A stretch of 6,193 bases of DNA from a virus (Monodnaviria; Loebvirae; Hofneiviricota; Faserviricetes; Tubulavirales). The DNA is taken from the IMG/VR virus record IMGVR_UViG_2663762857_000022; one strand, written 5' to 3'. Each line of letters begins with the position of its first letter. Positions within the stretch are counted from its first letter, which is position 1. This document shows, one piece after another, positions 4,073-6,073 of the stretch. Below the pieces are notes generated by a model. That model was not told the DNA's origin. It did no database searches and was given only the letters and a program-made list of their open reading frames with translations. Made by a program: the position numbers and the translations under genes.

Positions 4073-6073
4073 TCAGGGACAGTTATTGTCACAAGTCCAA
4101 GGGTCGGCTTCGCCGCCCCCACCCGCCGCGCGGGAGCGCGTCGTGCGGTGTCGTGAAGCCGACGAAATAAACACAGATTCATAGCTGCTGCCGCTTCTGA
4201 CTTCCTCTGCGCGGATTTTTTCTGCGGGGGTCATACGGCGGACAACACAGCCCATAAAACGGGTTATGACCGGAACAGGGCCAAACATGAAACCGGAAAT
4301 CACCGGTGCGCAGGGTTCACCGTAACGGTTAAAACGGGGTTTACCACCTTCCTGCGGCTGAACGTAAAAAGGACGAAGCAGACGTTCAGAACAGAAGAAA
4401 CCGCCGTTCAGCAGGATATAGGTCCGGAAATCGCCTGCATCACAGGCCATGCGGATGGCCTCCAGTTCGGCGACCTGCTGCGGCGTGAACTGCTGCATAT
4501 TGATATGATGTGCTTCAAGCGGTGAACGAAAAGTACGCATCTGGCGGTAAGCCGTGACGGACGGAACGCCAAAGAACTGGAACAGGCGAAGGCGCGTTGC
4601 TTTCTGCCAGCAGGCGGCACGGCTGACGGCATCACAGAATGAACGGGCAGAATAACGGTCATTCAGGGCGGTAATACCATCCGCACTGACATCACCCGCC
4701 ATTTTGGTGATGTACTTCACGATGTAACGGAAACCATCACCCTTTTCAGGGTCAATAGCCTCAATACAAATACGGTGCTCTTTCGCCCCCTTTTCATCCG
4801 GCTCATCGCGCATGGCCTCTTCACGGAAAATGGCCAGCACCGTTGCGCTCTCATGGGGATTGCAGTAAATCAGGAAATTCCAGTGCGTTGTACCGTCAGC
4901 ATGAGGCTCGACCGTACGCAGGCCGGGTATCTGAATACCGGCTTTATCCAGTCTGCGGCAGACCCGACGCCAGACGGTATTCAGCCAGGCGTGCGAATCC
5001 TTAACGGTCGGGCAACCTGCTTCCCACCATTTTTTATTCGGACGAGAATGCCATTTTCCGGCAACATTAAAACTGGTCGTCGGGTGAAAACGTGACGGCG
5101 TGGTGAGCACGATGAAGTAACCGGACAGCCCCATATCTTCGGACAGTTCACAGACGGCCTTTCCACGAACGCAGAGTTCAGCAATCCGGTTTTTCGGATT
5201 CGAAACAGAGGCGTTATGCGCATCTTCCAGCGTACAGATCAGCTCATTAAACGCATCAAAGACACCGGAGGACCGGAGATACTTTTTCACGCGTTTACTG
5301 CGGACAGCAAACAGGTCACGATGCCAGTCAGAAATATAAGGCGCGTTGCGGTTCAGTATGCCGAGCATGCGACAGACCTCATTGACCCGCTGGTCACGGA
5401 AAACCCGCAGGAAACGGGTGACAAAAGCCAAATCAGTCAGACGCTTAAGCAATCCCTCATCGCCGTAACGATCATGATAAGTGGCATAAACGGGGGCGAA
5501 ATCAAAGCCGGAGATGGCCTGAAAATAGGCCATCACATTGAGAAGGTGATGCTCTGGTACATCACTATAAATGGCCCGAGAAACAAGGCAGTCACGAACA
5601 ACCGAATCAGCCACCTCAGCAATCTGCTCATCAGTGCAGAAAAGCGAGAATTCATAAGGGTCTCCGTCCTGATTGAAGAAAGCAAAACGGTGAGCGGACT
5701 CAAGGGCCATCAGCGCATTTTTCACACCAAGCTGGTAAACCAGACGGCAGAACGCATGCGCTACGGTGAACGAAAACGAGCCAAACTGTGATACCAGTCC
5801 GGCAGCCCTGCCCCTGTCAGCGAGAGATAAATCCGTGCAGTTAATTCCGTAAATCACACGGTCAACCTGCGTGTTACGCGGCAATGCGAGCTGTGAAGAT
5901 AAGGTCCCGACCTCATCACGATACTGGCGGGAAAGCGTGGAAAGGTTGCGGGTGGCAACATCGCGCTCAGTCCGAAAATGCTCGCGTTCGGGCAGCGTCA
6001 GGCAGGGACGACCAAGGGCAACGGATGCCGCGTCGATGGCGTTATACGCTGTAAGGATGGCTGATTCGGTCAT
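4073..6073 (-). CDS. Rolling-circle replication initiator (Rep) endonuclease of the phiX174 gpA / P2 gpA-like superfamily
   Basis: 666 aa. ATG at 6073 with a purine-rich stretch (GAGAGA) about 10 nt upstream. Dual-tyrosine motif [11 protein letters not shown] (Y450-x-x-K-Y454-x-x-K), characteristic of two-tyrosine RCR initiators, and histidine-containing TTHWNFLIY upstream. The C-terminal ~45 residues are low complexity. Confidence 0.8.

Follow-up and report, generated by a model that had tools for sequence, protein, structure and literature searches.

The stretch of DNA analyzed here, 6,193 nucleotides (nt) long and referred to throughout as the window (IMG/VR virus record IMGVR_UViG_2663762857_000022), holds the greater part of a filamentous (inovirus-type) prophage whose genes all lie on the minus strand. 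One of these genes, rep, codes for a replication endonuclease (Rep) of 666 amino acids (aa), the last 41 residues of which form a tail of biased composition. Two DNA features lie within the tail-coding segment: a GC-rich imperfect hairpin of 61 nt and, directly 3' of it, a 24-nt motif, CCTTGGACTTGTGACAATAACTGT, related to the sequence at which the replication origin of the tailed phage P2 is nicked (coordinates of all features are collected in Table 1). The 3' end of rep, as the end of a protein and as a putative origin of replication, is the subject of this report.

By its sequence, Rep is a gpA-type (HUH, two-tyrosine) rolling-circle replication endonuclease of a filamentous prophage, with predicted nicking and joining activity. 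It matches PF05840 (Phage_GPA) over residues 207-457 (E 4e-48, 164.5 bits at a cut-off of 31.4) and PHROG 91, "nicking at origin of replication", over residues 123-666 (E 2e-127). In an alignment of 32 homologues, positions V388, E389, P390, H391, D393, H397, W398 and N399 are invariant; we take this stretch (EPH...H), from general knowledge of HUH nucleases, to be the metal-binding histidine motif of the nuclease core. Likewise invariant are Y450, K453 and Y454, which lie in the segment YIVKYITK and include the paired tyrosines predicted to be catalytic. The corresponding segment of P2 gpA is YIAKYISK, with tyrosines of the same YxxxY spacing at the identical residue numbers 450 and 454, for which an active-site role in P2 gpA is stated in PMC3986222. 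An AlphaFold2 model computed with the 32 homologues reaches a predicted local distance difference test score (pLDDT) of 85.8 and a predicted template modeling score (pTM) of 0.82, and is confident over residues 1-628. The N-terminal ~200 residues, which lie outside the Pfam domain, are all-helical. A sequence search of the PDB returned no homologue of the window Rep.

An earlier reading, made from the sequence only, had held that the last ~45 residues are compositionally unlike the rest of Rep, and this description is accurate: the open reading frame (ORF) ends exactly as it had been quoted, and Ser, Arg, Gly, Ala and Thr together account for 61% of the last 41 residues (626-666) versus 36% elsewhere in Rep, with a maximum of 54% among 41-aa windows starting at residues 1-580. 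Hydrophobic residues make up 12% of the tail versus 33% of the rest of the protein. The bias has its counterpart in the DNA, with a G+C content of 61% over 4073-4210 and 79% over 4103-4163, compared with 54% for the rep gene and 48% for the window. The same reading had called the C-terminus low-complexity, which stands as far as the compositional bias is concerned but not in the strict sense, as the Shannon entropy of the tail lies ~1 standard deviation (SD) below the gene mean; the tail is biased in composition rather than strictly low-complexity. Disorder, which had been raised as a possibility, is likely according to the AlphaFold2 model, in which residues 629-666 all have a pLDDT <50 and no secondary structure.

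The motif at the very end of rep encodes PWTCDNNC and is followed by a single codon (Pro666, CCC) before the stop. Its pattern, CCTYGGASTNNTGNCAATAAC, is matched once in the window (4082-4102, minus strand), with 0 matches expected by chance. In frame, it aligns with CCTCGGAGTCCTGTCAATAACTGT of P2 (residues 619-626, PRSPVNNC), the codons reading GCG CCT CGG AGT CCT GTC AAT AAC TGT in P2 and GAC CCT TGG ACT TGT GAC AAT AAC TGT in the window. The P2 GenBank record (NC_001895) carries the feature "nick site at ori" at 29892, within gene A, where the sequence is GCGCCTCGGAGTCCTGTCAATAACTGT; this position is base 2893 of the P2 locus in our set (L005) and the fifth base of the motif, which starts at 2889. 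Placement of the P2 nick site within gene A goes back to Liu & Haggard-Ljungquist 1994, as cited in PMC3986222, and the latter describes the P2 ori as sitting in the A gene and as nearly identical in a Vibrio myovirus. Where the window Rep ends in PWTCDNNCP, gpA proteins of tailed phages have an internal PWTRGNNC, PWTRVNNC or PRSPVNNC. The two origins are alike in that both motifs belong to one 24-nt sequence family (17/24 bases identical between P2 and the window, which fits the family consensus CCTYGGASTNNTGNCAATAACTGT at 24/24 bases), lie on the same strand and in the same frame register of homologous rep genes, just past the conserved core, follow a GC-rich hairpin that ends at the motif's first base, and accompany initiator tyrosines 450 and 454. 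They differ in that the P2 motif is internal to its gene (codons 619-626 of 761, with 135 residues following), whereas the window rep stops one codon after it, in that a 5-bp stem in P2 stands against the 61-nt imperfect hairpin of the window, and in that P2 is a tailed double-stranded DNA phage and the window a filamentous single-stranded DNA (ssDNA) prophage. Transferring the nick position from the P2 GenBank feature and the secondary citation, we predict that Rep cuts at about the fifth motif base, CCTTG|GACT (~4098).

On the sense (viral plus) strand, the hairpin has a predicted folding energy of -29.2 kcal/mol (z = -4.4 to -4.9 relative to dinucleotide shuffles, with 0/200 shuffles as good), and it is the most stable 70-nt segment of the entire window (-27.5 kcal/mol versus a mean of -6.4, SD 3.2). 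A relative with a complete phage unit gives the same picture, the equivalent hairpin being its most stable local fold. Since its arms are GC-rich and made of GGC, GCG, CGC and GCC, which encode Gly, Ala, Arg and Ser, the hairpin accounts for the bias of the tail towards these residues. Folding of 19 loci placed the end of a predicted stem 0-2 nt from the motif's first base in every case. Stems of most inoviruses measure ~14-29 bp (z -1.9 to -8.4), the outer stem of pre-CTX being shorter (~7 bp), whereas those of four tailed phages are GC stems of 5-7 bp (z -1.4 to -3.6), and stems of different clades are unrelated in sequence. Because the stems adjoin the motif in every locus folded yet differ between clades, the hairpin is conserved as a predicted structure while its sequence turns over.

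In a codon alignment of rep with its counterparts in the tailed phages P2, HP1, Shae_phiSM and PHL101 (Reps at 24-28% aa identity), third codon positions inside the motif are identical in 8 of 8 cases to each of the four phages, compared with 26-33% identity at third positions outside it. The substitutions that distinguish the motif from those of the four phages fall on first and second positions and change residues (W/R, T/S, C/P/R, D/V/G); with IMG/VR contigs included, the residue variants are W/R, T/S, C/P/R/S/G and D/V/G. These alignments show the reverse of the pattern expected under purifying selection on a peptide. Moreover, this one motif is read in three frames, as PWTCDNN, ALDL* or LGLVSLTV (asterisks denote stops), and in other inoviruses it follows shortly after the end of rep. 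The Salmonella diarizonae Rep (46% identical) ends in ...SSALDL*, encoded by GCC TTG GAC TTG TGA|CAATAACT, a one-base shift by which bases of the motif form the stop codon. A close relative of the window Rep (L139; IMG/VR contig 2713896901_000001, 3322) has small indels in the hairpin-coding segment and a tail that reads ...SPPLDL* (RLRLMRFRATSGAAESPPLDL*), again with the stop inside the motif, and the motif and the CTGTCCCTGA that follows it are unchanged. This locus represents a natural frame-switch variant of the window's rep gene.

In relatives, the stop falls within the motif (TTG TGA, or CAC TAA) or directly precedes it. The rep of VFJ (L149, 2078) ends in ALDSCH*, with the stop within the motif. 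Dolos, pre-CTX, Vaf1 and a V. cyclitrophicus phage have the motif outside rep, starting 0-5 nt beyond the stop codon. The annotated rep of fs2 (L155, 2360) reads the motif as LGLVSLTV and extends 76 nt further, overlapping the next gene; the discrepancy between the rep ends of fs2 and the closely related VFJ may be genuine, or it may stem from an indel in the fs2 sequence, which is an old one. In four Xenorhabdus prophages (L007, L009, L010, L011), hairpin and motif lie ~195 nt downstream of the rep stop. The Xenorhabdus Rep tails (…DDFEDDYEPENGRRLQSLLEGAR*) are acidic and unrelated to that of the window; that these tails (SLLEGAR*) hide a diverged motif was considered and rejected, the exact motif having been located downstream. 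Of the LDL* and LLEQxL endings, both considered as clamp-binding or degradation tags, the former was likewise dropped, ALDL* being the nick motif in another frame. With third positions fixed, the motif read in three frames, and its sequence retained at non-coding positions, selection thus appears to act on the DNA of the motif and not on the peptide.

The association between rep and motif extends to loci chosen independently of the latter. When loci were selected purely for similarity to the Rep protein, 15 of the 16 obtained contained the motif with no more than one mismatch; it invariably lay on the rep strand and, as in the window, in or near the 3' part of rep. A profile scan of genome contigs with the Rep alignment yielded a small sample of 6 loci only, from Salmonella and Xenorhabdus. 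A pattern scan of IMG/VR, which fixed most motif bases and was used for context and frame rather than for conservation statistics, returned at least 120 contigs: among the 120 listed, 113 have PWT/PRS as the frame in which their longest upstream ORF covers the motif, mostly within long gpA-like ORFs, and seven score best in another frame. At least four contigs (L028, L038, L067, L116) have the motif outside any long ORF. In one further locus (L135) the motif is 100% conserved amid diverged flanking sequence.

Collectively, the end of the window rep gene combines a match to the P2 nick site, a position in the 3' part of the cognate rep on the sense strand, and conservation beyond the needs of the protein. 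We put the probability that the last ~30 rep codons double as a plus-strand rolling-circle origin of the P2 type, composed of the hairpin and the nick motif, at roughly 85%. This estimate builds on what the analysis shows, namely the conservation pattern, the independence of reading frame, the predicted hairpins and a position equivalent to that of the nick site annotated in P2. The mechanism proposed for such an origin is drawn by analogy with P2 gpA and other HUH initiators, from which nicking, the exact bond, the cut strand and the role of the hairpin are inferred. Rep, via Y450/Y454, would recognize the origin region and cut the sense strand near the predicted nick, becoming covalently attached to the 5' end, and the 3'-OH would be extended by the host replisome; after one round, Rep would cleave and rejoin at the regenerated site, thereby releasing a circular plus strand. 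The hairpin may present or mark the nick site and, in inoviruses, may double as a complementary-strand origin. As the DNA would have to keep both hairpin and nick sequence, the tail peptide would be a by-product, its Gly/Ala/Arg/Ser stretch translated from the hairpin arms and its PWTCDNNC from the nick motif: a disordered appendage under little protein-level constraint that, judged by the low pLDDT of residues 629-666, appears to be dispensable as structure.

Several observations weigh against an origin at this site or limit how far it can be specified. X. hominickii (L008) has a homologous rep, and no motif was found there. The hairpin is weaker in L139 (z = -3.0 and -1.5) and in the Xenorhabdus loci L009 and L010 (~-2), and the P2 stem itself is short (5 bp; z = -1.4 for the 70-nt window); a long stem is therefore no requirement of a P2-type origin, and the hairpin may have a different role in inoviruses. 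The nick position at 4097-4099 depends on transfer from the P2 GenBank feature, and the strand that would be cut is deduced from the way the motif always faces with respect to rep, together with what is known of inovirus biology. Most members use the PWT/PRS frame (113 of the 120 IMG/VR contigs listed), which leaves room for a protein-level role of PWTCDNN. Finally, the window prophage is truncated (see below), so this copy may not be replicating now and may be inactive.

The hairpin could instead be another cis element that stands beside the plus-strand origin, namely a minus-strand origin, a packaging signal or an attenuator between rep and the downstream genes. Its stem length, 5-7 bp in tailed phages and ~14-29 bp in most inoviruses, which prime a complementary strand on ssDNA and package ssDNA, would fit such a role, and in Ff phages minus-strand origin hairpins adjoin the plus-strand origin. 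We nevertheless regard this explanation as unlikely, the stem lying within 0-2 nt of the motif in 19/19 loci whatever its length, which suggests one functional unit. Complete relatives moreover carry a separate strong hairpin with a T-run after the secretin gene, at the position of the Ff packaging signal. An intrinsic transcription terminator was rejected: the hairpin is followed by CCTTGGACTTG with no T-run, and a scan for terminators at 4103-4163 found none. A plus-strand origin and other roles of the hairpin are in any case not mutually exclusive.

A different account makes the tail a functional peptide, in which a disordered linker would end in PWTCDNNCP, a short linear motif for contact with a protein of the host, for instance a helicase, the sliding clamp or a protease. 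Disordered tails with a conserved terminal motif are a common protein-binding design, the E. coli relatives all end in ...PWTCDNNxP, and the preponderance of the PWT/PRS frame given above would agree with it. We consider it improbable, as the motif behaved contrary to a short linear motif when examined as such: codon choice is fixed at the third positions while first and second positions alter the residues, and relatives, including a close one, replace the peptide with LDL* or leave the DNA untranslated, so that the same sequence reads ALDL*/PLDL*, ALDSCH*, LGLVSLTV or nothing in functional-looking phages. P2, the bearer of the nick-site annotation, has PRSPVNNC, and neither the Cys nor the Trp of the motif is universally kept.

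The sequence-only reading had further suspected that Rep might be frameshifted, or truncated relative to longer gpA-type proteins. Homologues do not bear out a frameshift. The nearest one (P0001) is 99% identical, has 666 aa and an identical tail, and represents a cluster of 2063 member sequences; a second (P0002) is 86% identical with 668 aa, and E. coli relatives at 54-65% identity mostly have 649-668 aa, while P0007 and P0008 reach 773-777 aa owing to an N-terminal insertion. Most relatives end in ...TRxxRxxGxGxxGR..PWTCDNN[CYSF]P followed by 0-9 residues, and 13/14 near-identical IMG/VR and E. coli copies share the end of the window Rep. A C-terminal sequence and length common to homologues, which that reading had held to speak against a defect, is thus what the alignment reveals. 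The other two minus-strand frames over 4073-4400, where it had proposed to look for continued homology, contain several stops each. The PHROG 91 profile alignment runs to the final residue of Rep, at profile position 645/852 and three codons past the motif. The suspected truncation is real as an early stop and mistaken as an error: P2-type gpA proteins have 761-842 aa, and the tailed-phage genes run 60-260 codons further past the motif, whereas the early end of Rep, common to the 2063-member cluster, is a trait of the inovirus lineage and not a defect. Because homologues share its C-terminal sequence and, mostly, its length, the tail is native, and Rep is neither frameshifted nor truncated by error. 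The longer gpA proteins, an abrupt change of composition at ~residue 626 and the fact that a one-base shift would yield another naturally occurring tail (RPLDL*) could be cited for a non-native end produced by frameshift, sequencing indel or truncation, which is scarcely credible given the shared tail and length in the cluster and the near-identical copies, the same end in most relatives at 54-86% identity, the stops in the other frames, a profile alignment that reaches the last residue, and a next gene whose start is 30 nt away and whose product does not resemble the gpA extension. This 141-aa downstream gene had been considered as a split-off piece of a longer Rep and was rejected, its product having no similarity to the C-terminal extension of P2 gpA (E 0.67). 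The intuition of a frame change has a kernel of truth in that frames do change at the tail between natural homologues (PWTCDNNCP* versus PLDL*/ALDL*), not by error but because constraint apparently acts on DNA sequence rather than on the peptide. A probable overlap of the tail with a replication origin was not foreseen in that reading. What had looked like a possible fault of annotation or assembly is thereby cleared up; rep is intact, and its odd tail has a positive explanation.

Besides rep, the window contains genes for pI/Zot, a pVI-like protein, a pIII-like adsorption protein with a Gly/Ser linker, a small coat-like protein and the 141-aa protein, the gene for which occupies the slot of the ssDNA-binding protein gene of other inoviruses. 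The linker-coding DNA of the pIII-like gene (~2200-2330) is a repeat that relatives match at multiple offsets; they appear to differ in the number of repeat units. Near-identical prophages reside in E. coli chromosomes, often in tandem, with a rep of equal length (2001 nt) annotated as "replication endonuclease"; a megablast search of a phage collection with the rep region returned no match. Two E. coli chromosomal loci (L001, L002) hold tandem copies of the window prophage's relatives, and the L001 copy adjoins hipBA. A tandem arrangement would be expected to permit rolling-circle production of phage DNA off the chromosome. A region of L001 that the window lacks (1646-1715) folds into a hairpin that ranks second in stability within the complete phage; it comes shortly after the secretin gene, is followed by a T-run and is a candidate terminator and/or packaging signal, placed as is the packaging signal of Ff.

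The window copy itself is truncated, with a junction at ~368/369 inside pI/Zot, and lacks the secretin gene and the regulatory region. Positions 1-368, which are presumably a fragment of the E. coli arginyl-tRNA synthetase gene argS (recognized from the translation), are matched by all 5426 complete E. coli genomes, and phage homology begins at 366-369, within pI/Zot, which has 349 aa here versus 403 aa in relatives; the junction is spanned by none of these complete genomes. As phage homology starts inside pI/Zot and the junction is unspanned, either the prophage was truncated through a rearrangement or the contig is chimeric. At the other end, matches of all relatives stop at 6070-6074, and the 119 bases upstream of the rep start (6075-6193) have no match in related phages or complete E. 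coli genomes; they are either a variable regulatory module or a second junction.

Table 1. Features of the window, listed from the 3' end of rep outwards.
Feature	Position	Strand	Evidence
rep stop TGA, one codon past the 24-nt motif	4073-4075	minus	
P2-type origin nick-site motif (putative), residues 658-665	4079-4102	minus	P2 alignment
Predicted Rep nick, ~fifth motif base	4097-4099	minus	transfer from P2, inference
Hairpin (61 nt), residues 637-657	4103-4163	minus	DNA fold
Compositionally biased tail, residues 626-666	4076-4198 (stop 4073-4075)	minus	composition, pLDDT
YIVKYITK with paired tyrosines Y450 and Y454 (predicted catalytic), residues 450-457	4703-4726	minus	invariance, P2 match
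Conserved His motif (EPH...H), presumed metal-binding, residues 388-399	4877-4912	minus	invariant positions
rep, replication endonuclease, 666 aa	4073-6073	minus	ORF, PF05840, PHROG 91
141-aa gene (function unknown), start 30 nt past rep stop	3617-4042	minus	PHROG 30648
Small coat-like gene	3042-3302	minus	
pIII-like adsorption protein with Gly/Ser linker	1704-2990	minus	PF05357
pVI-like gene	1345-1704	minus	
pI/Zot	279-1328	minus	PF05707, PHROG 1675

Among filamentous phages, the closest parallels are the Vibrio phages fs2, VFJ, Vaf1 and pre-CTX ("RstA-like") and the Shewanella phage Dolos, which have a homologous gpA-type Rep (29-33% identity), the gene order rep, small genes, coat, pIII, pVI, pI, and a hairpin with nick motif at the 3' end of rep. 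They differ in the placement of the rep stop: VFJ has it inside the motif, fs2 reaches it 76 nt beyond the motif in another frame, and in Dolos, pre-CTX, Vaf1 and PE001 it precedes the motif by 0-5 nt. The window differs from all of these inoviruses in that its rep reads the motif in the ancestral frame and stops one codon later. In the Ff phages (M13/f1/fd), the phage nickase, gene II protein, starts rolling-circle replication on the viral strand, and hairpins lie near the nick site. The proposed window system is similar to Ff in initiation of rolling-circle replication by a phage nickase, in origin hairpins near the nick and in its filamentous biology; unlike Rep, however, the gene II protein does not belong to PF05840, and the Ff origin occupies a dedicated intergenic region rather than initiator coding sequence and has an unrelated nick sequence. 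YpfPhi and CUS-1 are dif-integrating filamentous prophages of ~8.7 kb in Yersinia pestis and E. coli that occur as tandem copies (PMC4266046); they resemble the relatives of the window, by description and not by sequence, as enterobacterial filamentous prophages arranged in tandem. No replication origin is described for YpfPhi in that review, and the Dolos preprint defines no origin sequence. A limited literature search found no description of a P2-type origin for gpA-type inoviruses, a text search with the motif string giving chance hits only. An origin within the initiator gene is already established for P2 and has been noted for P2-like phages, to which the window adds a filamentous E. coli prophage; of the P2-like phages examined, the three besides P2 carry the motif in rep as well.

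A broader interpretation, tentative and in our view with somewhat less than even chances of being correct, is that the hairpin together with CCTTGGACT..TG.CAATAACTGT forms a single portable origin, common to the tailed Peduoviridae and a large clade of filamentous Inoviridae, that travels with gpA-type rep. The same origin DNA would be translated in three frames, partly or not at all because the rep stop slid back and forth across a fixed origin, and the inovirus hairpin would have grown from 5-7 to mostly ~14-29 bp, perhaps owing to an added role as complementary-strand origin on ssDNA. If true, this origin would provide a natural series in which the C-terminus of a protein is repeatedly rewritten by an overlapping cis-acting DNA element, and a one-line rule for finding the origin in many uncharacterized inovirus prophages.

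For the prophage itself, the analysis predicts a plus-strand origin and a nick site (~4098) for a widespread family of E. coli filamentous prophages, represented by the 2063-member cluster and at least 14 near-identical IMG/VR contigs. It also supplies a search pattern, a hairpin plus CCTYGGASTNNTGNCAATAAC at the 3' end of a PF05840 gene, which located the likely origin in inoviruses of Vibrio, Shewanella, Salmonella and Xenorhabdus. More broadly, the 3' end of rep would clearly illustrate how selection on a protein can give way to a cis-acting DNA signal where a gene ends.

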